64,000 bases of DNA, taken from the IMG/VR virus record IMGVR_UViG_3300028591_000197, one strand, 5' to 3'. The notes beneath the pieces are model-generated. The model was not told the DNA's origin and made no database searches. It worked only from the letters and a program-made list of their open reading frames with translations. Position numbers and translations under genes: made by a program. Positions within the stretch are counted from its first letter, which is position 1. Each line of letters opens with the position of its first letter. This document shows positions 1,502-59,949 of this stretch, piece by piece. The DNA is from a virus.

Positions 1502-1867
1502 CTCATAGTTTGGTTAAAAAATAAAAATAAGATGAAATAATTAGGTAAACAAAAACCCCGACAGTTGTTTGCCGAGGTACTACACAGTTAACGAGTTATT
1601 TACACAGCCTCGGTTTCCGTGTAGATAACTATCGGGGTAAATGTTTATCATCTGCAAAATAACTGTTGCAGAATAAATTTCAAGAGAAAATTTTCTCTTC
1701 TATCTATAGATTATCAAAAATTGTTAAATTTTTATAACATTAGATAAGTCCAGGTCTTAACTATATAATCATACGCTAATTTTAAAAATGTCAAAACAAT
1801 TTTTTTTATTTTGTCTCAAAAAAATATAATCTATTAGTAGAGAACAATATTTACCCGCCACACCACT
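1502..1867. promoter_or_regulatory. divergent intergenic control region: long imperfect hairpin (about 1556-1650) plus a degenerate copy of the conserved promoter motif (TATAATCTAttagTAGAG, 1825-1842)
   Basis: The outer stem is ccccgacagtt / aactatcgggg enclosing further internal inverted repeats. The motif variant sits about 25 nt upstream of the first plus-strand gene. Confidence 0.35.
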
Positions 1868-4996: not shown

Positions 4997-5012
4997 TATA
5001 ATCTATATATAG
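4997..5012 (+). promoter_or_regulatory. conserved promoter-like motif copy 1: TATAATCTATATATAG, preceded by a T5 tract; the ATG lies 6 nt downstream
   Basis: Exact 16-mer shared with copies at 19217, 46412 and 59701 (the last on the minus strand). Confidence 0.55.
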
Positions 5013-8352: not shown

Positions 8353-11300
8353 ATGGCGAAAGTTAAAAATTGTGAAGATATGGCAAACATATTAGCCGTA
8401 TCTTTGTTCACCTGAGATGAAGAGATGGCTAAAGCCTTAGCGGAGGCTTCATTCCAAAAGAGAGTGGCTATTTCTCGTAGTAAGAATTTGGATGTGTCTA
8501 AGGATAGTAAAGAGATAGATGAGCTTACAAAGCAATCCTGACATCACCTACATTTGAGAGCTGCTTCTGCAGACATACAGATTATGTCTATAATTCAAGC
8601 AAAGATTCTTAAATGAGAAGGTAGAGTTAAGGAAGCTGAGGCTATATTATGAGAAGCTTATCGTAGAATGTGATGAACTATATGATGATGAATTGATTTA
8701 TTAAATATGGTTCAAAACGCAAAGCCATCTGAATTGGATGAAATAGCTAGGCTTCGATGATTGAGTTGAAAAAAAGCCGATGAAGTTCTCGAACAAATAA
8801 ATGACCAGATAGCTAAGTTTGAGTCGTCAAACTATAGTATAAAACAGCACGCGGACTTTGTTCGTGACGATATGGCAAAGATTAAAAGTAAATATAGGAA
8901 GAAAGAGCGAGATGATGAAAAAATAGAGAAGGAAGTTGAAAAGGCATATAGGAAATGATTAAAGGATATTATGGAGGGAAATAACCCTACTGATATAGTA
9001 AAGCTTGATGAGGAATGGGCTCAAATAAAAAGGCTCTATCCTGTCAATTCTTCTATGAAATGAAAGACAAAGGAAAAAATGTTGAAGGCTAGGGCAGAAG
9101 CCTGGAGTCAATATATTATGGCTAGAGAAATTTTGGCTGATTGATGAATTGATGAAGATATATTTAAGGCTTTTAAGAAATCAATTAAAACAAAAAACCT
9201 AGCTAAAAAATTAACAATAGACCAGATTATGGCCTACAAAAAATGAGACTTAGACCTTTTGTTGGCTAGAGCTTATTTAAATACAAAGCAATTATGTGAG
9301 GATTGAGCACTTAGAAAAGCTTTTAGAGATAAGTTAGTTGAGCTTACAACTTGAGAAGATGTAAGTTGACAAACTTCAAAAAGGATTCAATCTATTATAA
9401 ATACATTAAAATTTTCTGAAGAATGAGCATCGTTTGCTACTGTACTTAAATACGATAATCTAGCTAATAGTGTGATTGACCGTGGGTTAACTACACAGAA
9501 GAAAAGATGAAAGAAAATATATGAATCAATTATGAAGTTCTGTAAAGAACTTAGGGAAAATCCAAACCTTCTTGAGGAAGAAATTGTTATCGATTGAATG
9601 AAGATGCAACCTGTAGATGTAATTCAATTGGTTTATGAAATCACTTGAGATAAAAATATTGTAGCTTTGTTAAATATTGGGAAATATGATGATAGTATTG
9701 TGTTAAATGTAGCATCTCAATATTTGCTAGGGAACAATAAAGCGGCTCAAGAATCTATTTTAAAGTTATTGGCTAAATGAAAGAAATGAAGTCAAATAAC
9801 AAATACTCGTAATTTGATATTAAAATCAATTACTTGACAAGATATTGAGGATTGAGCAAAGGTTGCTTTCTATGATTTTAGAGAGTGATTATATAATAAA
9901 AACAAACTAAATAGACGTAGAGCAGACTTTAGAGAAGCTCTTGCTAATAGAAACAGATTGAGGATTGAAGGTAGTGGTATTACAAATCTATCTGAAATTA
10001 AAGATGAAAAGTTATTAGCTAAAGCTTTGGATGAATTTGAATGATGATATTTGGTTGTAAATGATATAGCTTGGAGAGATAATGAAGTATTAAGAAAAGC
10101 AGTTAAAGATAAGAAGATTACAGTTATATTTCCAGAAAGAGGGATGACATCTAATTTTGTTTGGGAGGATAAAAATCTAATCTTTAGGACTAATGATAAT
10201 AAACTCTTTGAAAAAATTGCAGGTAAAATATCTATTCAAACATTATGATGAGCTAGACCTACTGAAGCAATTGAAGAAGCTTGAAAGAAGGTAAAAAGTT
10301 GAGCCACTGAAGCTTGACAAGAGATAAATGTAGTTAGAGAGATTGGAACTATAGATGATGATATAGAAGCTGCGGCAATCAAATATTATTGAGAAATGCT
10401 TTGAGAAACTACCCCAGAGAAATTAGATGATGAGTATGTTCGTAGAATAAAGAATATGCTAGCTGAACATCTATGACTTGATATTAAAGCATTTGATGCA
10501 ATAAAAGATAAAGCTGAGCTTTGGCAGATGATTGATGAGAAATTCTGTATGGAGAAGCTTACAATGTGAAGATATGAAATGGAGATAATTGATATGTGAG
10601 CAGAAATAAAGAGAATTGAGGATATGTCTCCAGAAGAATTGATTAAGGAAATTAAACAACATATCTGAGACTATTATAGTGATGAAGCTATGCTAGAGGC
10701 TTGAGTGTTTAATCAGATTAGAGAAGCATATATAGACTTTAGAACTGCAGAATCCCCAGAAACTATTTTGATGGCTAAGTGAAGAATGATGTCTTTGGCT
10801 GCTTGAGGGCAGGCAAAGAGAATGACTATGGACCAAATCATTTCGATGTTTCAAAAATGAACGATGGCCGATGTCTATAAAGAAATGTTCTTCCCAACTC
10901 AAGATTTAACAAAGGAACAGCTAGATACTTTGATTAATAGTATCAATGATGATTTATTTGATATTATTTGTCTACAAGTAGAGAATAACTTAGTAAAAGC
11001 TTGATATTCATTACCATTGATGAACATAAAATGAATGGTGTATGACTACATTAAGACAGGTGAAATATCTACAGCTTGAGATTTTGTTAGGAGTTTTGCT
11101 CTTAAGAATAACATAAATGACACTGTAGTTGGTGAAACTTTGCTACAGTTTATGCCAAAAGAAATTAAGTTTGACTATGAAGATGCTCTATATAAAGGTA
11201 GAGATTTAACTATAGAGAATGGTCAAAGAAGTGTATTTAGAGAGGCTAAAAATGAATTCTTAGAAGACAGTTATTCTGCTCTTGCTACTATAGAGATGGC

Positions 11301-14300
11301 TAAATCTTGAGATATGCCAGCTGGATATGAAAGAGAAATCTTAGAAAAAATCCTAGATAAATATATAAGCAAGTTTTCAGAAAGATTAGCTGCTTGATGA
11401 TTAGACTTTAGGGAAGCTGCCTGAATAAAACAAGAAGCGTCTTATGCTTTGGATATGTTTGAGCAAGATTTAGTTCTTGCTAGGTTTGGTAGATTAATGT
11501 CTCCGTCGGAAAGACAGTGATTGCTTTGAATGAAATATGAACTTCCTATTGCCGTGTCTTGACAAAATTCAAGCGATGTAATTAAGGAAATGGAAAAAAT
11601 CAAAGCTACTTTATTAGATAGATATGATAGGACATTAAAGAATGTAGCTGAAAATAACAAAATTAATGCCACAATAGCTAAATGAATGGATTGAAAAAAG
11701 TCCTTAAAAAAGAGAATCGAATTAAGAAAACAAAAACTTAAAGAAGACTGAATGGTTATAAAAGAAGTTAACTGACAATATCTTACATTTGATTCTAGAA
11801 CAGCATTACTCAATGAATTAAATAATTTATCTCCTAATATTAGGTGACTTGAATCCATCAAAGCTTTAGGTAAGAGTTGATTGGAGCAATTACCAAATGA
11901 ACAAGTATATGCTATATTAAGATATGTGGAAGCAGCAAAGGCTTTAGAGTCTAAGGCAAATTATGTTACTACATTAATGTATAAGCAAAGCCCAGAGTTG
12001 TTTAATTTACAGTTCTTTAAGAGTTATAAAGTTGTAGATTGATTACCAAGAATTATGCACGGTAATTCTCTACAGAATTTAGATGTACTTAAGAATCTTT
12101 CAAATACTTCTGTAGTTGATAATACAATGAAGAGACAAATCTTCAAAAAAATAAAAGAGGAATTTGGAATAAACTGAAAATTAACAGAGAAAAAGTTAAA
12201 GGCAATTATCAAGGAAGTGGTAGATGATAATGCTCAAGATATACTTTGAACTGCAAAGATATCTGTATATAAGAAGAAGTTGGCTACTGAATTAATGGCA
12301 TTAAAATACAAAAGGTTATTTAATCCATATACCCTTATTAAGGATTTGCCTACACAATGATGAGAAGGTTCAATAAAAAAGAAGGTTGAGGATATAATTA
12401 AAAAGCAATATAATGAAGCAATTCTCGATTTAAAAAATATGGGGATTGATACATTAGATAGCTTGGAAAATAAAATCTCAGTTATCACAACTTCTTGAGA
12501 AGAAAAGACTTTGAAAGAAATAGGGACTGAAAGTATCGATTGATGGAAGAAGGATGTATTTGATGATGAAACTATCTTTGTTAAGTCGGCAGACGAGATA
12601 AAAGATTTTGATACTAGCGATTGACATTGGGGAATACTTAGTAAATGGAGAAAAGATAAGGCAGTAAAAGAACAGAAAGCATATAGGGAAATGATTGCTA
12701 ACGAATATGACTCTACATTACAGACTATGCTTAATGGTTCTGAAGATATTACATCAGCAGAGAGAAAACTTATGACAGCTCTTTGGTTTGATGTGAGGTG
12801 AAAGATGAAAAAATATTCATTAACTAATCAAATTATCGAGACTGCTGATGTACTAGGTTCATTAAATGAAGAAATTGCTAGATGAATGAAAGACTATTTG
12901 ATATGATTTATATGAAATGCTTCATTCTGAAAACTTAATTCTAAAGCAATCACAGATAGATTAAAGGAGGTACAAACAGCATATGAAAAATTTTATACTT
13001 TAGATACGGCTTCTTTAAGTAGGGTTAAGCCTACAACTAAAGCAGAACATCTAGCATTAAACTTAACAAAATATTTTAAAACTATGGAGAATAGTTTATG
13101 AAGTTTTGATTGAGTTACTTGATGTACAACTGTTGCAGATATAAATAAAGCATTCTATCACATCTGAGAAGTGTTTATGAATCTAAAGTGAACTGAATGA
13201 GTATTCTCTTTATTGTCTGCTATTGAGCAAAACCAGATATTAAAATTCTTTAAATTCGCTGAGAAGTGAGATGATGCTTATGTAGATATATTCAAGCATT
13301 GATGACTTAAGGAAGATTGAGCTTTGGGTTGATATAGGGATTATGTAAATGAGGTGTCTCTTACGAGAGAGCAATTTAATCGTATATTTGGTGCAGCATT
13401 TGATAATCGAGATTATAAAGAAATAATGCAGGCTCTTTCTTGATTTACAATAACTTGAAGTTGGTTCTGAAGGCGAGGGCAAAGAATATTAAATTTCTTG
13501 AACTGAAGTACTTGGATGTGAAGATTAATTCTTTCTTATCCATTACAGTTGCTCTCAATACCTTTACAAGGATGAGCATATTTCTTAAAACAAATTTGAT
13601 TTGAAAGAAGATTATGAATTGATAGTTTGCGGGATATAGATGTGGTTAGAGATTGATTGTGAATTTGAAATGGAAGCTATAACGAATTGCTATGAATATG
13701 AAAGAGTTTAGTAAGTCCAGATGATTTGAACTTAAATTCTTACTACAATAGGTACTGAATACCTGATGTAGATAGAATATATAAATGAGCGAATTTTGAA
13801 ACCGCACAAGATTATTTAAGTATGTATGCTAATATAGATAACTATGCTTCTTCTGATGTCAGCTCTGTATCTTGGTGGTTTAGGCAACTTGACCCATATA
13901 AAGATAATGCAAACAATATTATAGACTGAGCATTTGCTAGAAACTTTAAGAATATAGCTTTCTACAAAGCTATGAAGGAGAATAATTTCCTACAGTTTGG
14001 CTCTGTGAGAGAGCTTACTGATTTCTTAAATAATCCAGAAATAAGTGCTGGAATTAAAGATAAGTTGATAAAAAGATTAGAAACAGATTTCGCTAAAAAC
14101 TTTAGAAGTATTCTTTGATTATGATTTGGTTGATTAGATAGACCAGTCGCCTGAAATGCTTTATGAAATATATTTATTTGACTAGCTAACTTATTTAATT
14201 TTAGGTGAAGTTGGTGAAGAAATATAGCTAAGCAAACTTGACAATCAATAATGTCTACTTTAAAATGGATTAAGATGAACCCATTATCAAAGGAGGCAAA

Positions 14301-16656
14301 GGAGGCAATGGCAGACTTCTTAGTAAAAACGCCAGAATTTATGAACTTCATATGAGATTGGTTTAACTGAATGCTTTGGTCTTGGAAGTTAATAAGGTAT
14401 CAAGATAATGGAAAGTGGGAAGACTTAGACCAACCGCATTCAATTATGGACTTCTTAGAGTTCTTAACAGATAACTTTAGTGAGATGGCAGGAATGATAT
14501 TTACAAATGCTAATCTTACATCTCAATGGCTACAAGGTATTGAGTCTTATGGAATTGCTAGACCAGTAATTGAAGCTATTGGTTCTATGTATTTAAGTAG
14601 TCAAAATCCAACTATATATAAAGATACTTGGTGAGTTTGAGCATTGTTTAATTCTATTGGTAAAAACTTTGGAAGACAATGGAAGACTAGAAACTTCATA
14701 TTTAAGCTTCTTTGAGTACGAAGGACTGACTGAGCTTCTTGAGTTGAGGCATTTATTCAAAACGAATTATGGAAATTATCTTGAGGTTCTGTTAGATATA
14801 TGGTAACCGAAGATATGAATTCTTATTGATATACAATGGAAATGACTTGAGAAGAGTGAGGTTGAATCCCTTCTCTATTCTTATGAGAAGCTCCTATTGG
14901 TTCAGATAAGACATTTATGTATGAATTAGATAATACAGAGGTTTGGGAAACTATAAAGTTATTGTTTGATGATGATTTAGCTTGGAGTGATAAAAAAGCT
15001 TATGCAAGTAATCTTACTAGATGATTAGTTAATTCATCTCAATTACTTTCTGCTGGATATAATTCTTGAAAGCTGTGGCATTGAGAAGATTTTACTCATC
15101 CATTTACAGAGAGTGATTTAGCAGGAGTTCTTACAAAGACAGAATATTGAAAAGAATTCTATAGGAAGTGATTAGTAACTCCAAAGAATCCAGATGATGC
15201 TAGAACATTCTATGACCAGCTTACTAAGAATTGACAATATAGGCCTTGAAGTGAAAGCTTTAACACATCCATAGAGAACTTTAACAAGACTTGACATATG
15301 GATGGAAAGGATTGAAAAGAGGCAGACAAGGAAATGGAACTTTGGTTAAATCATATGAAGTATTCAACTAATGAACATTGAGAATATATCCTTAAAAGTT
15401 GAAAGAAAGTTGAAGATAAAGCTTGGACAATGCTTATGCAAGACATTAAATCACATTATTATGACCAAGATTATGTTACAGATTTAGTATATCAATATTC
15501 ACAGAAATGGTTAGATGTACATTCTAGTGACCCTAATTATCCTCTATATCTTAAGATGTTGTGACAATGAGCTGCTTATAGGCTTATTCAAGATTGATTA
15601 AATAGAGAAAAAGAGCTCCTTAATATCTTTGGTGGTAAAAAGGCTAATGAAAAATGGGATTTAAATGAACTTAAAAAGGCTTGATACTTGGATGATTTAA
15701 TCTTTAAAGTTTGAAATAGCAAAATTCTTTGAGGAGATGAAACATATTTCGAGAGATTGCAAGCTCTAGACCAAGATGCAGCAATTGATGCTTCTTTGAT
15801 GCTAGCAGCACAGCAAGTAAAAGATGAAACGGATAAAAAAACTTTGGAAAAGTTCTTTAAGATTGTCGAGGAAGATGATTGAACAGGAGAAAAAATTAAA
15901 TCTATTCAATTTGAAAAACAATATCTTGCACAGCTAAGACAGCTATGAGCTATGGAGATTGCTAAAGATGAATGAAATTTAGAAAGATTTATAGCTGAAG
16001 CTGCAAACATAACTAATATGTTTAGCAACGATGACCCAACTTGAGTTGTAACGGCTAGCTTAATTGATTCTATTTATGAGAGAATTAATTCGTCTAACTT
16101 ATCTTGAGCACAAAAGGTTGAGGCTATGGCGGCTTTATTTCATCATAACAAAGATTTAATTCAGCGTAATCCTGAATTAATGAGAGAATACTTATGAGAT
16201 GATTATGATAAGTATGCTAAATATATGAATACAATTTTGTACTGATGGGATTGACAACTTATCTCTACAATCGATAGTATGATTACAAGTAATGATGATG
16301 ACACAAAGAGCACTTCTTGAAAGTGAGCTTCATTATCTTCAGCATTTAAAAGTACTTGAATGAAGCTTTGAGGAAACAATTATTCACAGTCTGTGACTAC
16401 TTGAAGCTGAGAATACAAACAATGGATTCCTATCACTATTGGTTGAGCAGAATTAGTTAGAGCTCTTTGAGTTAAGTGATATACTCCAGATGTGTCAAAG
16501 GTTAAAGTTAATAGTTATAAACCTCACGTTGACTTCTCTATTAAGAAAGATGTTAACAGAAGTGTTAATTGACCAAAAACACAACAGATATCAAATAAGA
16601 AACAATTAAGCAATCTTACGAAGAAAGCTAAGAAGGCACTTGAAGCAGAAAATTAA
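8353..16656 (+). CDS. giant protein 2 (about 2767 aa), unknown function; candidate ejected or internal virion protein
   Basis: I walked the frame codon by codon from ATG 8353 to TAA 16654-16656 and met no TAA or TAG, but well over 150 TGA codons. Track ORFs 10051.. and 14371.. lie in the same frame. Confidence 0.6.
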
Positions 16657-16811: not shown

Positions 16812-17098
16812 ATGACAGAACACGTTGCTCCAGAAAATGAAAAGGCTAGGGAAATGCTAGACAGAATTGTTCAACAAGAGTTATGAATGTCTGCTCAAGA
16901 GCTTTACCTTAGATGACTTGTACAAGAAATTAAACGTTTACAAGAGACACAAGAGAAGTGATACGAAGAAAAACTTTTAAAGTATTACAAAGAAATTGAC
17001 AATATATGCTGATTTTCTAAGGACAAGAGAGATGTTAAAATCGAAACTAAACTTAGAAGTACAGCTGACATTTTTAATTCTACAACTCTTAACTAATG
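16812..17098 (+). CDS. hypothetical protein (about 95 aa)
   Basis: The ATG is preceded by ggaggagga. Its stop overlaps the next ATG (ctaATGg). Confidence 0.45.
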
Positions 17099-19143
17099 GA
17101 AAATATAGATAGCGAAGTTAAAAAACAAGAGCAGGAGAGAAAAAATAAAATCTACCAAGACAATTCTACCGACTCTGAGCGCACCATCTATGGAAAATTA
17201 AAGAAAATCTTGTATCACTTTAGAGACAACATCTTTCCAGAATGGTTTGATGTAGTTAAAATGGATAAACTTTATTCTAAAGAATATGAGGCTTGACTTA
17301 AAAGACATAATATGCAATACAAATCAGCTAAGATTTATCCACTTATAACTTCTATCCACGATACATTTATGGCTTCATTGTACGACAATGACCTTCGTCC
17401 TAAAGTGTTTCCTATGGAAGAAGTAGACCCACAAATTGTTGATGATGCCCAGTTATTCTTCCAATGGGGTACTGAGATATCAGAGACAGAACAAACTAAT
17501 GAAATTATTAGAAATGAAGCTTCATTGATTTGAGCATCTTATGGTATGCCAGGTTATACTACAAGTATAATGAAGAATGATGACTGAGAAAATGTAGTTA
17601 CATTCATTCCTTGTTTATTCCCTGTGTCTGCATTTGAAATGTTCTATAGTGTTTGAGCAACAGACTTTTATAAGGCCCCAGAGAAATTTAGGAGAAGGTT
17701 TATCCCATTTGATTGATTAAAGGATGCCTTCTATCCTATATGGGATTGAAAAGATTGAATGTGAAAACAATTAGAGAAAAAGAAGTCCGCTATCCTAGAA
17801 GCACCTATGCCACTTAGTAAAGCAGATTTTACGAAGATATATGACATTGATGCATACTCACAAACATATTTATGATACTTGGGTGATGGAACTGCTACGG
17901 GTATGATTTATGATGATACATTTAACATCTTGGATAGCTCTAGTTACTGTGAAGTAATTGACCTATATATAGGCGATAAGCTTATGGTTATGGTGAATGG
18001 TTATTTTGTTTATTCTGGAGAAAGTCCTTTCAAATATTGAGAAGACTTTGCTATTACAGGGAAGGACGGGCCATTTATTGAGCTAACATTTGAGAAATGA
18101 GTTGGATGTATTCCTAGTGGAATTGGTAAGAAAATTATGGGACACCAGAAACAGTGTAATGCTCTATATAATTCTTTAGCAGATGCTATGTATAGACATC
18201 TTAATCCTGTATTAGCAGCTGTTCAGTGAGCGATTACTGACCCTACTACAGGTAATGCCCCTACATCTATTGGATATGATGAGTGAAAAGTTTACTCAAT
18301 CAATCCTTCATATGCAGGAATGAATAATGCAATCACAAAAATAGACTTTACTGATTACAACATTCTTCAGTTAGCTATGAATCACTTTGAGAATATCAAA
18401 GCTGATGCCTATACAATTTGTTGAGTTAACTCATATGTTCTTGGTTGAGAATGAAAAATTGAACGTTCTCGTTACTGAGCAGAACAGAGAGTTAATGCTT
18501 CAAAAGCTAGACTTAGTCCTATGATTAAATCTATAGGTAGATTTTATGCTAAGTTATTCTACCATTGGCTATGACTTGCTAAGCAGAGTTGAGCTAGTGT
18601 AGCTTATGTACAGAACGAAGACGAAGAATATGTAATCAATCTTTCTGAACTAGATAAGAAGTTTAAGATTGTATGTTCTGCAGATATTTGAGTAGAGGAA
18701 ACTAAAGCTTCTAAAGTTCAGTGACTTCTTACTATGATGCAGAATACTTCAGCATTTGCTACAAATCCTATTACAGGATTGCCAGATATTGATAATAAAG
18801 CATTCCTTGAAAGTGTTGCAGATTATGCAGGGCTTAAAGGATTTAAGGCTATGACAACTGATGAGCAGAAGCAATATATTGATGAAAGTTATCAAATTAA
18901 AGATTATATACAAAAGAAAGAAATAGAGGCACAGAAGCAAGTACAAGAAGCTCAGCCTCAACAACAGCAACAACCACAGGCTATGCCAACTACCAATGGT
19001 CAGCCTAGTGAAGAAGAAATAGCTATGATGATGCAACAAGCTCAAGCAGCTAATCCAGAACAATCAACATTACCTTATGTAAATTCACAGTACCCAGAGG
19101 TGGTAGATGAAAGCCAATTAGACTTTGTAATGCCTCAATAATA
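17096..19143 (+). CDS. putative portal protein (about 681 aa)
   Basis: Track ORFs 17096.., 17312.. and 18734.. are one frame once TGA is read through. Size, position (upstream of the scaffold-MCP pair) and a Q-rich acidic C-terminus (QPQQQQQPQAMPTTNGQPSEEE) all fit a portal. Confidence 0.4.
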
Positions 19144-19151
19144 TTAAATAA

Positions 19152-19190
19152 AAGCCCAGGTGTTAGCTTGGGTTTTTTATTTTAATTCAA
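19152..19190 (+). terminator. probable terminator after the portal gene
   Basis: Hairpin aagcccaggtgttagcttgggtt followed by ttttatttt. Confidence 0.35.
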
Positions 19191-19216
19191 AAAGTTATAG
19201 CGAAAAGCCTAAATTT

Positions 19217-19232
19217 TATAATCTATATATAG
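19217..19232 (+). promoter_or_regulatory. conserved promoter-like motif copy 2 (TATAATCTATATATAG), upstream of the scaffold/MCP genes
   Basis: Exact 16-mer preceded by a T-tract, with an immediate downstream hairpin gaaaagg...ccttttc. Confidence 0.55.
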
Positions 19233-19375
19233 AAAAGGTGATAATTGGACGCCTTTTCGTAAGTGATGCGTAGACGCATAATGGTGATGGTGGTTGAATG
19301 GATTAGCTAGCTATGGGATAGTACTTCGAGTTGGTAGGCGAAGGAAGCGACATAGTCTACACATAGCTAGCAATA
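19233..19375 (+). other. structured 5' leader: hairpin 19233-19259; palindrome atgcgt-ag-acgcat; long-range stem tagctagctatg/catagctagc enclosing a tRNA D-arm-like hairpin cttcg-AGTTGGTAGG-cgaag
   Basis: Inverted repeats read directly from the sequence. The loop AGTTGGTAG matches the canonical tRNA D-loop, but I could not build a full cloverleaf. Confidence 0.3.
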
Positions 19376-19408
19376 TCTATTCGTATTTTAATTCATAAAC
19401 TTTTGATT

Positions 19409-20314
19409 ATGAACGGGGAAGAAACCACAACAATTGGACAAGTAGCCGAAAGTCAGGCTAATATATCCAATCCAACTGAAACTGCTCCAGTAGCAGAACA
19501 GCCTGCTCAGCCTGTACAACAACCCGAGCAACCTGCAGTTGAGGAAAACAACTGAACTTGAACTTCAAGTTGAGATGTGCAAACAACTCAAACAGCCGAA
19601 GCTCCTAATCCAGACGATGTCTTAGACCAGGTTAATGCAATACTTAACGAGGATAAAACATTAGAGTCTGTGGCACAGGAGACTGAGGAATCACAAAATC
19701 AGAAGGAGAATGAAGCAGCTCTAGCTGATATTGTTAAAGAACAAACAAAAGACCTTCCATCCGAAGAGCCAAAGGATGTAAATACCGAGGCAACTTCTTC
19801 TACTGAAGAATCAGATAAGCTTGACGAAGAGTTAAAGCAATGACTTGAAGATATCAAAGATAAGAAGTCTGCGGAAGATATGGCTAAGAAAGTTTATCTA
19901 GCTTTCCAAAAAGAACGTAGTATGCACCAGTTCGATAACGAGCAGAATAAAAATACTATAGATATTCTTAAAGGGATGGTTAGAAAATTAAATGAACAAG
20001 TTACTACGGCTGATAATGACCCGAGAGTAACGAAACTTGATGACGAATTCTATACTCTCTGGAGATTAGAACAGTCGTACAAAAAAGATAAGAGCGATGC
20101 TAGTAGAAAGAATTTAACTCGCTACTATGTTGCTAAGTTGGCAGTAATGAATCCTTCATTAAATGCCAATCAAATAATGGATGTTTTTGAAAAACCTTCA
20201 TTAAAATCAAACACTATGTGAGAAGGTAGCCCTACGTCTGCTCCTGTAGCTGAAGTAGTTAAGCCTACTCCAACTCCTATGGGCGTTCCTCTTCGTAAGA
20301 GATGAATGTTCTAG
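19409..20314 (+). CDS. acidic, helical scaffold-like protein (about 301 aa)
   Basis: ATG at 19409, with track ORFs 19577.. and 19880.. in its frame. It is E/D/Q-rich and sits between the portal and MCP. It ends with TAG at about 20312-20314. Confidence 0.45.
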
Positions 20315-20378
20315 AGTTAATTATTTATCTAATTAACGGTGAGCCGCGCTTGGAATAGCGTGAGCTTTTTTCTTTTTA

Positions 20379-20399
20379 TTTTTAATAGGTTAATTAAAT
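20379..20399. repeat. 21-nt exact repeat TTTTTAATAGGTTAATTAAAT abutting the MCP start codon; the second copy at 57498-57518 abuts the SSB start codon in inverted gene-relative orientation
   Basis: Exact match seen in the sequence at both sites. Confidence 0.5.
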
Positions 20400-21945
20400 G
20401 GCAGGAACAACTGTTTGTAATCCTTGCGATGCAGCTGGATTGGCTGCTGACTACAGACCAGATTGTGCTGAAGGACTTTCTGGAAAGAGCATTGAATTAC
20501 AGAAAATTTTGAACCCATTATATGCTAATGGACGTGTTTTGGAAACTTGGGGACAGTATGAAGATTTCCTAAGATATGAAACAATCTTCTTCGATGTAGT
20601 ACCTCAAAAAGACCCTACAACAGGAGAAGTATACGTAACTTATAAATTCAAAGATGGTTTAGCTGCTTCTAGCGAACTAACTTTGGTTGATTGTGAATGT
20701 AAAGTAGGTTGGTATGAACCAAGAATTTGTGGTGACGAAACTAAAGTAGCTGAAGCTGCTGAAGTTGGAGCTACTGCAATCGTTGTTGAATCTTTGGCTC
20801 CATTAGGAGGAGTTGACAGAGATTCTACAATCCTAGTTATGAGACAAGGTGGAAATCCAGTTAATGGACTTTACATCGACCACATTGATAGTGCTACAAA
20901 TACTATCTACTTAAAGAGACCTTTGACAGTTGCTTTAGCTGTTGGAGACAAAGTTCGTAGAGGAGCTTACTTAAGAGACAGAAGTTGTGAAACTGAAATC
21001 TATAATCCAGTAGAATTAGGAGGATTAGATTACTATTCTGCTTTCTTCAGAACTATCTCTATTTCTCACGAATTTAATTGGTGTGATTTGAACAAAGACT
21101 ACCTTATCTCTGGAGGAATCCAAGCTATCGTAGATGCTATGTTCAGAAAAGGAGACATCGAAGCTATTAAAGAATTCTTACACGCTGCTTTCTATGATAG
21201 AAACATCCAAGTTTCTGCTCATAAATGGGAGACTATGGGACTTTTCCCTGCTCTTGCTAGAGCTCAAGCAAATGGATTAAAGATTGCTTTCGACCTAGAA
21301 GGATGCTGCGACGAATCAGCTTCTGAATGTGTAAATGCTAGACATCAAATTCAATCTTTCTTGGATATCGTAATCAATAAAGCTACTGTATCTGGAATGT
21401 ACAAAAACAACGTAACTGTTGCTATGAACAAGAAAGCTATGGAAGGATTACATATGATGCAAGGATATTTCCAAGATTATGGAAATGTTGGATTCTTAGA
21501 TGGAAGCCAATTCGATATCGATGTTGGATTACCAAGAATTAGATATGCTGGTATTACTATCACTTTCAAATACTTGCCAATCCTTAACGATTTCGACTTC
21601 TCTGTAATGTTAACAATCCCTGAAGATAAAGTTGGAGTATTCCAGCCTAAATACACTGTAGTTGACACTAACGGAAAAGTTGTAGCTAATGCTAACATTA
21701 ACGGATACATCTCAAAAGGAACTCCTATGTTGAGATACTTACCAGATAATCCTTACAATATCTGAGCACAGCTTGGAGAATGTAACAAGATTGTTGGAGA
21801 TGTTAAATTCGCTGTAGTATGGATGTGAGTAGATAAAGGAGCTTATAGATTCATTAAGAACTTTGGTTCTTGTGTTCTTAACGCTTGTGATGTATGCTCA
21901 TTAGAAGATGTAGATGTAATTGATGGTGAACTCGATGTAGACTAA
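20398..21945 (+). CDS. putative major capsid protein (about 515 aa)
   Basis: This is the only long standard-code ORF (455 codons with no TGA). TGA codons at 21766 and 21829 are read through to TAA at 21943-21945. A scaffold-like gene lies just upstream and a strong terminator downstream. There is no TGA in 455 codons although TGA is frequent in the other structural genes. Confidence 0.55.
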
Positions 21946-46411: not shown

Positions 46412-46427
46412 TATAATCTATATATAG
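46412..46427 (+). promoter_or_regulatory. conserved promoter-like motif copy 3 (TATAATCTATATATAG) followed by two hairpins (atagagaaa-cca-tttctctat; cccctag...ctagggg + T-run) at 46428-46495
   Basis: Exact 16-mer preceded by an A5 tract. Confidence 0.55.
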
Positions 46428-46505
46428 AGAAACCATTTCTCTATAGCCCCTAGTTATTCCCCCGATAGCTAGGGGTTTAATTTTTAATAGTTAATTTTAA
46501 TTGCT

Positions 46506-46799
46506 ATGAGAGCACTTAAAAATTTTATGAGAGACCGTAAAAAGGATATGCTAGGTTGCGGAGATTGTAAATGTAGAACTTTACAATGCTGGAGACTAGC
46601 TGATGAATATTGTGATTGTTGAGATTACAGCACTGAAGAAAACGTTACTCCTGTAGAGCCTGTAGAGCCAGTAAATCCTGATATTCCAGACGAACCTATT
46701 AATGATGACGATAATGACGATAATAACAATAACGAAAATAACGAAGAAGATAACAACGAAGAACCAGATATTTTAGATTTAAATGAATTAAATAGTTAA
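46506..46799 (+). CDS. small Cys-rich N-terminus / poly-acidic C-terminus protein (about 97 aa)
   Basis: CGDCKCRTLQCW...YCDCGDY followed by a D/E/N-rich tail. Confidence 0.4.
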
Positions 46800-54468: not shown

Positions 54469-55049
54469 TAGTATGAAGGTAAAACAAAATTGTCTATTGC
54501 TAAAGCATCGGTATTCCTAGTTCCCCTTTTTTTCTTCTTAGGAAGGGGGGCTTGGGACCCCAAGTACTCGGGTTCAGAAATTTTGGCCGGTATTTCGGGT
54601 TCCGCCTCAACAATGACTTTTTTCTCCTTTTGCTCCTTTTTTCTTACGAGAATTTCCTTGTCCAAGGTATCATTCTCAGTTTTAATTCTTTCTAGAGCTT
54701 CTCTTTTAGATTTATTAGCCTCAAGATATTCTTTCACTAAAGTTTTACTTTCTTTAGCAATTACCTTAAATGGCTCTGGTAGTTCTGAGATAGTCTGTGT
54801 ATATAAATCCATAACTATTGTGGCTAGTTGAAACTTGTCCAACTCTATATTGTGATTGTCTAGATACTCTTCACATACCTCAATTAGCTTAGCATTTATA
54901 TCGTCAAGCATATCATCTGGGTCAGCTTTGTTGTGCTTGATGATTACCTCCAATCATACCTTCTCCAAAGAGAACTCTAGTATTCATTGGTACACAGTTA
55001 TAAACTGCTTTAACTCTTTACGAGTTCATTTAGCGGTTGTCTGCATCTT
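54468..55049 (-). CDS. hypothetical acidic protein (about 193 aa)
   Basis: The track ORF uses a TTG start. The frame continues upstream to an ATG at about 55049 that overlaps the end of the sigma-like gene. Confidence 0.35.
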
Positions 55050-55590
55050 CTAAATCATTTTGCTCGATAAATCTTTTTACTTTAGTAGCAATTGTATCTA
55101 CTATATCTCTCACATTATAATATGTGGTTTTCATTAGTCTAGCTATTTCGTACTTTCATCTACCTTCTCATAGATATTGTAGGACTTTAGCCTCAAGTGG
55201 GGTAATCACATTGTTTACGACTAATACATATTGTAGCATATCGACATCCATATCATAGCTCCAGTGTTCGCTATCTCTAATGTCGTCGATAGTATAACTT
55301 TCTGGTCCGAATTGATTGAGTTTGTTATATAACACTCAACCTCATCTATTAAATAGATACCATAGCTTACTGATTTTCTTTTCGTTAGCAACATCTTCTC
55401 TAAGAAGAATGTTGTCTGCGATTAGAAAGCTCTCAGAAAGAATATCATCTTTGGTGTAGGTATAGTTTTTGTGACGTAATAGAGGGTTCTTCCTCATAAG
55501 TAGTTCCATATTCTCGTATAGGAATATTCTACCTTGTTCAATGTCTTTTTTATATAAATCTAATACCCTTTCATAGATATTCTTTTGCAT
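55030..55590 (-). CDS. sigma-factor-like protein with region-4 helix-turn-helix (about 186 aa)
   Basis: The C-terminus LEAKVLQYLGEGRGKYEIARLMKTTYYNVRDIVDTIATKVKRF matches the sigma-70 region 4 / LuxR-type HTH pattern. Track ORF 55342..55623 is its N-terminal part. Confidence 0.4.
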
Positions 55591-55600
55591 TTTTTTGTTT

Positions 55601-56811
55601 TTATTTTGGTAAATTGAGTTCATCTTCTAGGCACCTAGCACAGGTTACCAATGTAACTCATAGGAATTTACTTACACATTCATACATATATTGGTAAGCA
55701 GTTTCAGCCAAGTGGATATAATCTAAATCATCCATCTTTGTATTTAGAACTTCTTGGCTAAATTGATAAATGGCTATAGAATGCTTAACCAAACACCACA
55801 TATGGTCGTCACACTCTATAGCCATTTCCTTTAATTTTCTCATAGCTAATCTTCTCTCCTCCAAGAGGCTTTCCATTTTCATCTCGTGCCATACACTTTC
55901 CTCTTCCAAGTCAGCAGCTTCATCTTCTGAGAAGACTTTTCTGTTGTTTAAATCTACTTGTAGAGAATTGTATAATTCATAATGATGAGAATAGCTAGCA
56001 ATAAGATTAGCAATGAGTTCAATGAGCTCTGTTGCAGCTCAGCGTTGACTATCTTTATTCATTACATTCTATCGAGTGAGCCTTCCGTGGTTTCTATATG
56101 TCCCTCGTGTACTCACACTAAATAATCGTAGAGCTTTTCTTTTACGAATTGCTCTGCTTCATCTCTCTTAACAATATGAGTGATGTTTTGGTGCTGCATT
56201 TTCTTTTGCTTTGTGAATACAAGATAGCTAAACGAAATTGCATCTATATCTGGATGCTGTAGGAATTGGAACCAAGGGTAAAACCTTCATTGATAACATC
56301 AGAAATCTCGTTTCTCTGTTTCGTTCCATTTTTTCTTAGCCGTCTTGCAATCAAACAACATAGCACCATTCATTCACCAATCTATTTCCCCCGTCAATAT
56401 AATCTTATAACCACTAAAGTCTACCTCAACTGCACTCCTAAGGTTTCTTATATCATACATACCAATAGCTTCGTACTGCTCAGATAGAGGTATTAGTTGT
56501 TCTAGTCAGTCGTATAGCCAAGTGAATTGCTTGTCTTCTTCTCAACTAGAAGAATAATATCTCATTCTCTCTGGGTTCATCATACTTCTTGCTATCTCAA
56601 TCTGATGTTGGGCTGCCTCAACTCATTGATTAATTCTAGCAAAAACTATATTCTCCACTAAGTTTCAAACCCAATATGTATTGGCTTTTTTCTTAGGTTC
56701 CAACTCTCCAACGAATGGAGGTGTAGGAACAAGAGCTTTTTCTATCTCAGTAACTGAGACTATGATAGTTTTATAATCTTCCTTAAGAGGTGCAAATTGG
56801 TGATAGAGCAT
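55601..56811 (-). CDS. hypothetical protein adjacent to SSB (about 403 aa); possible recombination or replication function
   Basis: Continuous frame with TGA read as sense. Track ORF 55658..55909 is its C-terminal part. Confidence 0.4.
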
Positions 56812-57568: not shown

Positions 57569-57853
57569 TTATTTTGTCATATAATATAGATTTTTCAGAG
57601 TCAAGAACCCTGTTTTTTCGTCTGGTGAAAAACATATAGCATCAATCAAACATCACACCTCTTCATTAAGTGATAACACAGACGCTTGTAATGGTGAAGG
57701 TAGGTCTTGTTCTAGAATGAATTGTATCAAAGACTTTGGTAGGTATACAACTCATTCCATTACATCTAGCTTGTCTCTAGTTATAATCTTAATGGTTCAG
57801 TGGTCGTAAACTACGGTGTAACCATTTACTGCTTTATATGGATTTAGTCCCAT
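57569..57853 (-). CDS. hypothetical protein (about 94 aa)
   Basis: ATG at about 57853 and TAA at about 57569. Confidence 0.3.
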
Positions 57854-59700: not shown

Positions 59701-59716
59701 ATAAAAGTCTCTATAT
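59701..59716 (-). promoter_or_regulatory. conserved promoter-like motif copy 4 (TATAATCTATATATAG on the minus strand), preceded by an A6 tract
   Basis: Exact 16-mer. This is the only copy in the minus-strand early/replication-type block. Confidence 0.55.
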
Positions 59717-59725
59717 ATAGATTAT

Positions 59726-59949
59726 ATTTTTTAGGCTAATCAGTATAACGCATTATATTAAAAAGTCTATTAGGGAGCTCCTCGCTGTGCTTATTTTGTC
59801 TAAGCTTTTTTATTATCTTCCTATATTGATATGGACGAAGACTTCACCGATATGAAGACTTCTTATTCGTTTTCCATTTGCCCCTTTTATCTTTTCGTAC
59901 GTGACGACAATATGGGCAATGGCAACAACCAAAGCCCATACTTATAAAA
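59726..59949 (-). CDS. small basic zinc-ribbon-like protein (about 74 aa)
   Basis: N-terminus MGFGCCHCPYCRH... Confidence 0.35.

Follow-up and report, generated by a model that had tools for sequence, protein, structure and literature searches.

The 64,000-nucleotide stretch of DNA from an uncultured phage considered here (IMG/VR record IMGVR_UViG_3300028591_000197; 'the window') carries, ahead of the genes for a scaffold-like protein and the major capsid protein (MCP), a new, conserved, structured non-coding 5′ RNA. This leader, about 150 nt long at 19232-19382, lies between a repeated promoter and the scaffold start codon. Segments that its fold leaves unpaired are matched in antisense by the mRNA expected from a conserved open reading frame (ORF), ORF94, elsewhere in the window, and the match points to an RNA-RNA link, so far undescribed, that would join replication genes to capsid production. 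The explanation preferred, with somewhat less than even confidence and judged from the sequences of both partners, is that the leader would be a trans-acting antisense riboregulator built into a structural-gene mRNA.

From 5′ to 3′ the leader comprises P1, P2, a single-stranded linker and the P3 domain, with six helices in all when RNAalifold is applied to 13 distinct leaders of the window clade. Its parts, and the spacer that follows, are these:

19232..19258 (+), P1: 8-bp hairpin at or near the 5′ end, loop UGAUAAUUGGACG; 95-96% of alignment cells pair, with 4-5 compensatory pairs.
19259..19265 (+), J1/2: single-stranded joiner; it forms part of the block TAAGTGAT (19260-19267), found again at 57667.
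19266..19279 (+), P2: 5-bp hairpin; 97-98% of cells pair and 5/5 pairs are compensatory (20-sequence alignment).
19280..19295 (+), linker: single-stranded AAUGGUGAUGGUGGUU, which shows the strongest conservation in the whole leader and hardly varies across the clades.
19296..19382 (+), P3 domain: outer stem, inner stem, P3a and P3b, with a three-way junction (RNAalifold).
19296-19303/19375-19382, P3 outer stem: paired in only 73% of cells.
19306-19315/19362-19371, P3 inner stem: 10 bp, 100% paired, 10/10 pairs compensatory.
19324-19328/19339-19343, P3a (the 'D-arm'): 5-bp stem and 10-nt loop, AGUUGGUAGG; 98.5% paired.
19349-19351/19355-19357, P3b: 3-bp hairpin, 95% paired.
19383..19408 (+), spacer before the start codon: A/U-rich, unstructured, no Shine-Dalgarno sequence.

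Several of these had been picked out in an earlier note on this DNA. The hairpin gaaaagg-N13-ccttttc (19232-19238/19252-19258), the palindrome atgcgt-ag-acgcat (19266-19279) and the 10-bp long-range stem gctagctatg/catagctagc (19306-19315/19362-19371; a 12-bp version has one mismatch) correspond to P1, P2 and the P3 inner stem, and the hairpin cttcg-AGTTGGTAGG-cgaag (19324-19343), which has no second copy in the window at up to 3 mismatches, to P3a.

Taken alone, the predicted stability is modest, RNAfold giving -50.1 kcal/mol for 19225-19415, z = -2.84 against dinucleotide shuffles, with 2/200 shuffles as good. The leader is, however, present in more than 20 related metagenomic phages, whose homologous loci were gathered via MCP homologues and one metagenome pattern scan (14 true and 7 chance matches), and the gap of ~270 nt between the portal and scaffold genes is conserved. 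RNAalifold on the 13 leaders finds compensatory changes in 19/36 predicted pairs. A MAFFT alignment of the same number of distinct leaders, built without structure and hence an independent check, has 89.7% of its cells pairing, as against 37-42% with the partners slid, and both sides change in 20/39 pairs as against 2-5, a level reached by 0/500 shuffles. In the 20-sequence covariance-model (CM) alignment, which includes distant clades and leans toward the model, 92.6% of cells pair and 33/39 pairs are compensatory. Covariation, by which the earlier note would have had the stems judged, supports them strongly in both alignments.

A covariance model made from the leaders finds one copy only in the window, at 182 bits, and also detects the element in distant clades in which the MCPs are 56-60% identical (E 5e-6 to 4e-4). 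What the distant clades keep (MCP identity 54-60%) is P1, P2, a linker of the AAUGGUGAUGGU type and a P3 with a UUGGUAG apical loop; in those of L009, L041 and L044, and by eye also in L010 and L043, a single hairpin replaces the three-way junction. Within the P3a hairpin, sequence conservation is confined to the loop, UUGGUAG(G). One relative, L016, has none of the module: terminator, promoter, leader and the hairpin in the scaffold/MCP gap are all missing. The suggestion of a regulatory non-coding RNA or leader thus agrees with what is found, an RNA that is structured, conserved, non-coding and placed between a dedicated promoter and the scaffold-MCP genes. A separate feature of the L009 clade (L009:2170-3075, L038:2297-3138) is a portal-scaffold gap of ~900 nt of non-coding DNA, with repeated blocks upstream of the leader, e.g. 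...CTTTCACGG.AGAGACATTAGTCTCGGCTCAAAAC.CC.TATATAGAG..., that may be further promoters or RNAs.

The likeness to a tRNA D arm, on which the earlier note had laid stress, holds for the loop and goes no further. The 8-nt loop sequence AGUUGGUA equals the canonical D-loop, and a D-arm-like hairpin with a G18G19-type loop is present, which alone is insufficient to define a tRNA family; unlike a tRNA D arm, P3a has a 5-bp stem and a 10-nt loop, belongs to no cloverleaf and is detected by neither ARAGORN nor the Rfam tRNA model. A tRNA-like element or decayed tRNA, for instance an RNase P substrate or mimic tied to recoded TGA, might appeal where TGA is read as sense and ARAGORN finds 0 tRNA genes in the whole 64-kb window. 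However, with TGA = Gly the phage shares the code of its likely host and needs no suppressor tRNA, and the fold has a three-way junction, dispensable in distant clades, with no T or anticodon arm. Rfam 15 gives 0 matches over the whole window at the gathering threshold, and at E<=10 within 19100-19500 no tRNA, T-box or C4 family match in the leader, the weak hits there being confined to the terminator-promoter stretch 19100-19217 upstream of it. A tRNA identity is scarcely credible.

Several other identities were tried and either rejected or judged unlikely. An attenuator, also raised in the earlier note, is unlikely: the base of the P3 stem is A/U-rich, the U tract following it is interrupted (GUAUUUUAAUU) and the terminator scan did not flag it, so that the G+C-rich stem and uninterrupted U tract of an intrinsic attenuator are both lacking in P3. 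A T-box leader has no Rfam match, and the folds show no alternative terminator/antiterminator pairing. The junction expected of a riboswitch is not kept across members, being a plain hairpin in the L009, L041 and L044 clades. A small ORF in the leader, MVMVVEWIS*, has its frame broken in close relatives by 1-3-nt linker indels and a 1-nt deletion at TTGA-TGG. GGUGAU as a Shine-Dalgarno or standby site is lost in the L010/L043 variant, and the genes of this phage are without Shine-Dalgarno sequences. For a ring like that of phi29 pRNA there is no Rfam match, and the two loops are similar, not complementary; for a box C/D or K-turn, CUGA is not conserved; and for a G-quadruplex, the GG runs are not kept in distant clades.

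The linker and the P3 loop are conserved though unpaired, and their reverse complements were therefore searched for; both match inside ORF94.

57569..57853 (-), ORF94: conserved 94-aa ORF in an operon starting at promoter copy 59726(-).
57667-57674, 57689-57704 and 57736-57743: sites in ORF94 complementary to J1/2, the linker and the P3a loop respectively.

The predicted ORF94 mRNA is collinearly antisense to J1/2, the linker AAUGGUGAUGGU and the P3a loop UUGGUAGG. On the + strand the blocks TAAGTGAT, TAATGGTGA and TTGGTAGG stand in the same order and at similar spacing in the leader (19260/19279/19331) and in ORF94 (57667/57689/57736). The latter two occur in these places only and nowhere else on either strand of the window; TAAGTGAT has two further + strand copies. 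A linker match with <=3 mismatches, followed 20-90 nt on by an exact TTGGTAGG, is found once as against 0.001 expected (P ~0.001), the same bipartite motif with looser thresholds giving P 0.035-0.04, and among 25,502 windows on both strands the best linker duplex is that with the ORF94 site. RNAcofold of the leader with ORF94 yields 45 intermolecular bp and a free-energy difference (ddG) of -33.3 kcal/mol, where 396 random genome segments give a mean of -8.5, a standard deviation of 3.6 and a minimum of -21.9. The + strand of ORF94 scores only 5.2 bits with the covariance model as a second structured copy, and when complements of the P1 loop and the terminator loop were sought elsewhere in the window, none stood out.

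The sites fall on codons of conserved amino acids. ORF94 has 51 homologues; the target sites encode LPK, invariant in 51/51, and LPSPL, kept in 35/50, the P3a loop bases being complementary to the codons CUA CCA A (Leu-Pro-Lys). At paired positions all three lineages keep CTA and TCA, minor codons that make up 16% of Leu and 19% of Ser codons respectively, and codons identical across lineages make up 9/15 in the target region vs 9/36 elsewhere in ORF94. In 2/3 lineages the target of the P3a loop lies within a predicted hairpin loop of the ORF94 mRNA. As to the company that ORF94 keeps, in L048 a DnaB-type helicase gene is two genes downstream of it.

ORF94 DNA is available for the window lineage and for two further lineages, L046/47 and L048/L049. 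The L048/L049 sites UUACCAUCACCACU and GCUACCAA are perfectly complementary to the linker AGUGGUGAUGGUAA (14/14) and loop UUGGUAGC (8/8) of the L044/L045 leader. That leader differs from the window's in four of these positions, and 4/4 differences are matched in the L048/L049 target, as changes from A-U to G-C, G.U to A-U, G-C to A-U and G-C to C-G. By RNAcofold the cognate pairs have ddG values of -33.3 and -24.3 vs -20.9 and -12.9 for crossed pairs. In the third lineage, L046/47, CUACCUUCACCACU fits a linker of the L002/L007 type, GUGGUGAUGGUAG, the lineage's own leader not being among the sequences compared. As read from these sequences, the complementarity between exposed leader segments and ORF94 mRNA is non-random and lineage-specific, and the compensated differences, with cognate pairing stronger than crossed, suggest co-variation of leader and target in the two lineages concerned.

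If the leader is an antisense riboregulator, its stems would present J1/2, the linker AAUGGUGAUGGU and the P3a loop UUGGUAGG, all three unpaired, to targets in the ORF94 coding region, namely the codons for the invariant LPK and the conserved LPSPL. A loop-loop contact of the P3a loop with CCUACCAA, in the predicted ORF94 hairpin loop, would nucleate pairing, which would then extend along the linker and take in P2 and the P1 3′ arm to give a 28-45-bp duplex. The duplex would block translation, or a double-strand RNase would cleave one or both mRNAs, so that expression of the ORF94 operon would be coupled to the level of the scaffold/MCP transcript. The direction favoured is that abundant leader would silence ORF94. 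On such a model the linker would be the most conserved segment, though unpaired, because it must match the CCA UCA CCA codons of invariant residues. P1 probably also protects the 5′ end. The leader and the ORF94 operon follow identical promoters in opposite orientation. A bolder version, which is rather doubtful, is that the two phage mRNAs would regulate each other directly, the leader being an evolved antisense copy of an internal ORF94 segment and the loop-nucleated 28-45-bp duplex a stoichiometric switch that balances the replication and assembly modules.

A number of points weigh against the antisense proposal. At the DNA level the leader-ORF94 relation is a direct repeat, so that concordant changes could also arise from common descent or from one DNA-binding factor acting at both loci. 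The repeat is marginal by blastn (47 nt, 74% identity, E = 0.077), and a k-mer chain test with the whole leader is not significant (24/300 shuffles), owing to chance matches between the A/T-rich 3′ portion of the leader and an A/T-rich genome. Part of the thresholding in the motif test is post hoc, and several thresholds of the analysis were chosen once the data had been seen. Both partners come from two lineages only, and L045 and L049 are linked by a shared sample, not by a contig. The full duplex needs P1 and P2 melted. The linker variant GGUUGACGGU of L010/L043, which reads GGUUGACGG, predicts a changed ORF94 target; in phages of that type ORF94 would carry a compensating ACCGUCAACC in place of CCAUCACCA. 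Finally, antisense pairing leaves unexplained why UGG(A/U) recurs in the P1 loop and in that of the terminator between the scaffold and MCP genes.

The direct repeat invites the reading that the leader is a non-functional relic of an old duplication of an ORF94 fragment, or, as a variant, that both loci share a protein-binding motif acting at the DNA level. The repeat spans ~47-85 nt at ~74% identity and reaches the P1 3′ arm and P2, beyond the unpaired parts. Yet unselected non-coding sequence should lose similarity where the MCPs are only 54-60% identical, and here cognate leader and ORF94 stay matched while lineages differ, with the exact blocks coinciding with unpaired segments of a fold that covariation supports. 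As for the DNA-level variant, the ORF94 site is ~2 kb from the nearest 16-mer promoter (59726-), a distance that speaks against its being an operator of that promoter. Either form has a slim chance.

The UGG(A/U) motif is found in the P1 loop of most lineages, at two places in the linker, and in the loops of P3 and of the scaffold-MCP terminator. It keeps a second alternative alive, since antisense pairing does not account for its copies in the P1 and terminator loops. The leader may be a protein operator that binds, via UGG(A/U), an oligomeric RNA-binding protein of the phage (possibly the scaffold itself) or of the host, which would tune translation or stability of the scaffold message. UGG-loop hairpins bracket the scaffold gene, and the one on its far side, a terminator hairpin with a covarying stem, has the same loop, (U)UGGA(A/U), across 13 distinct relatives (same position, L001-L044), though it is absent in L016. 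There is also a parallel in P22, where the regulator is the scaffolding protein and no RNA element is known to have been defined. Wyckoff and Casjens in 1985 and Casjens and Adams in 1985 (both cited in PMC5529062) reportedly found the P22 scaffolding gene to be autoregulated and modulated post-transcriptionally, a precedent for an operator here. As in P22, control would target the scaffold gene post-transcriptionally; unlike there, it is the RNA element that is defined and the protein that is putative. A Pfam scan of 34 small phage ORFs gave no RNA-binding family, the scaffold-like protein is without any family match, and the motif is short, G/U-rich loops possibly having other origins. Above all, an operator leaves the collinear ORF94 complementarity and its lineage-specific covariation unexplained, and it is considered unlikely.

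Further alternatives turn on what surrounds the leader:

4997-5012 (+), 19217-19232 (+), 46412-46427 (+) and 59711-59726 (-): the exact 16-mer TATAATCTATATATAG, in every case with a GTTATA 17 nt before it.
19194..19232 (+): promoter copy ahead of the leader, with GTTATA at 19194-19199, a 17-nt spacer, TATAAT at 19217-19222 and the conserved CTATATATAG.
17096-19141: portal gene (PHROG portal match), upstream of the leader.
19150..19177 (+): intrinsic terminator after the portal gene (12 bp + T run by scan), the 5′ boundary of the leader module.
19409..20314 (+): scaffold-like gene, 301 aa, acidic, TGA = Gly, between the portal and MCP genes.
20341..20372 (+): terminator-like hairpin in the scaffold/MCP gap, loop (U)UGGA(A/U).
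20398..21945 (+): MCP gene, 515 aa, 72 homologues, capsid-like fold matches.

What the earlier note had called promoter copy 2 is one of exactly four exact copies of this 16-mer in the window (4997+, 19217+, 46412+, 59726-), all with the GTTATA element. Sites of the TATAATCTATATATAG type are probably the main promoter type of the phage, and the motif upstream of the leader is kept in relatives. The leaders after the other three copies are short, about 5, 27 and 80 nt, and a long structured leader is therefore specific to the scaffold-MCP unit. Degenerate copies of the 16-mer are at 1700-1715(-) and 1825-1840(+), and the product of 55030-55623(-) may, judged by eye only, be a sigma-like helix-turn-helix protein.

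With such an arrangement the leader might act in processive antitermination of the HK022 put/lambda nut type, alone or with a factor modifying RNA polymerase to pass the operon terminators. It is, by position, a promoter-proximal structured RNA, followed by terminator-like hairpins at 20345, 21957 and 37141 before the next promoter copy, only at 46412, and its conserved linear segment plus hairpin loops would resemble boxA plus boxB. Both the leader and the scaffold-MCP terminator are missing from L016; since the promoter and the upstream terminator are missing there too, the co-occurrence is not specific. Other copies of the promoter drive long operons without such a leader, no similarity to an Rfam family is seen, and the complementarity to ORF94 would be left over. 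On balance antitermination has little probability.

A passive role, as a 5′ stabiliser or processing signal, would dispense with any partner in trans, the stems shielding the structural mRNA or forming a double-strand RNase site. P1 begins on the final bases of the promoter motif, thus starting at the predicted 5′ end, and GAGAAA...UUUCUC-type hairpins directly follow two other promoter copies. The leaders of T7 gene 10 and ompA provide protective 5′ stem-loops for highly expressed mRNAs, and by analogy P1, at the very 5′ end of the capsid-cluster transcript, could do likewise. In contrast to those leaders, the one here is far larger and shows sequence conservation in its unpaired parts; protection needs stems, not sequence, and yet the unpaired linker and P3 loop are the most conserved parts, while an elaborate P3 domain would be superfluous. 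As the whole function this is very unlikely, and both antitermination and passive stabilisation are possible as minor or additional roles.

For the preferred antisense function the nearest counterparts are phage and bacterial antisense RNAs. The c4 RNA of phages P1 and P7 pairs through two separate exposed segments with two sites on its target mRNA and derives from a longer transcript, with no gene of its own; its targets are downstream on the same transcript, covering the ribosome-binding site. The leader would likewise be a phage-encoded structured RNA with separate exposed segments, part of a longer transcript. It is unlike c4, whose role in ant repression is documented (PMC8198154), in having no Rfam C4 match and in that the putative target is inside a coding region, in another, oppositely oriented operon ~38 kb away.

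Lambda OOP and P22 sar, and the kissing-loop systems CopA/CopT and RNA I/RNA II, are cis-encoded, perfectly complementary and on the opposite strand of their target. The leader would share with them an extended duplex nucleated at a hairpin loop, with bases shown in a loop plus single strand, and differ in being trans-encoded, with complementarity that is interrupted and apparently maintained by co-evolution. Listeria SreA/SreB, riboswitch-derived small RNAs from 5′ untranslated regions that act in trans, are a parallel in that an mRNA leader would double as a base-pairing regulator of another mRNA; here there is no ligand-sensing aptamer, and as a terminator P3 with the U-rich tail would be weak at best.

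The leader defines a new, covariation-supported RNA family, in a phage family for which the searches of the INPHARED GenBank set and IMG/VR returned no member and which is probably of candidate phyla radiation (CPR) hosts; gene regulation in CPR phages can at present be approached from sequence only. To our knowledge no phage riboregulation has been described for CPR hosts with code 25. Should the antisense reading be true, the leader of the most abundant late mRNA would double as a trans regulator of another operon, a compact coupling of capsid production to the replication module, and that an unpaired segment is the most conserved part would be accounted for by codons of invariant amino acids.

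The identification of the genes that the leader precedes, for which the earlier note had given scaffold plus MCP, differs in firmness between the two. The MCP assignment stands on capsid-fold matches, as does that of the portal on PHROG; the AlphaFold model of the MCP is poor (predicted local distance difference test, pLDDT, 54) and served for a coarse capsid-fold call only, though the best PDB matches by Foldseek are still phage capsid proteins. The label 'scaffold' is putative, given from gene order and composition only, the protein having no family match. Near the start of the scaffold gene, at 19550-19575, there are 3 TGA (Gly) in nine codons (AAC AAC TGA ACT TGA ACT TCA AGT TGA), and several relatives have TGA at about codon 5-10, a position at which the window reads GGA. 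The P1 loop sequence AATTGGAC (19243-19250) recurs at 19432-19439, in scaffold codons 8-10 on the same strand ~190 nt downstream, one of five copies in the whole window.

The window is A/T-rich (G+C 34%) and phage-like, with long ORFs only if TGA is sense. In the MCP gene, in-frame TGA aligns with Gly in 66/87 non-TGA residues of homologues and with Trp never, and the code is therefore 25, not table 4; on this alignment the phage uses genetic code 25, with TGA read as Gly. In public protein databases these genes are translated with TGA = Trp. An MCP relative of 73% identity is carried by L050 (JAZUKX010000100.1, 9978 nt), a contig binned in a 'Candidatus Absconditabacterales bacterium' metagenome-assembled genome (MAG). 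Since this and TGA = Gly fit together, a code-25 host is plausible, and the host is probably an Absconditabacteria-type (CPR) bacterium. Phages of Absconditabacteria/Gracilibacteria with their host's TGA = Gly code are already described (PMC10746230). The MAG that contains a further MCP homologue, P0042, is labelled Methanobrevibacter, probably as a result of mis-binning. No relative appeared among INPHARED GenBank phages, searched by DNA and protein, or in IMG/VR, searched by MCP, leader patterns and ORF94, the first IMG/VR protein scan having been handicapped by translation with TGA = Trp; a search of genome contigs with the leader pattern gave no match.

Other features of the genome are of separate interest. 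Within 46412-46505, promoter copy 3 leads directly into a 5′ hairpin, AGAGAAACCAUUUCUCU, and then a strong terminator-like hairpin (46445-46477; 14 bp + T run), with the next gene starting at 46506, a layout reminiscent of lambda PR'-tR' that might give a short terminated RNA or be an antitermination checkpoint. A 515-519-aa DUF7487 gene, inserted variably among relatives, may be a mobile cassette: in L007 (520-2663) it is reversed, between portal and leader, plus a 197-aa partner, and in L010 (5657-7216) it comes after the MCP gene. Directly upstream of the portal module, 8353-16656 is one ORF of 2767 aa with no Pfam record and homologues of 2662-3602 aa. Near the left end, the terminator scan found near-identical tandem hairpins, TGACTGATTTTCAGTCA and TGACTGGTTTTCAGTCA, at 765-781 and 798-814, each then followed by CTTGGTT.

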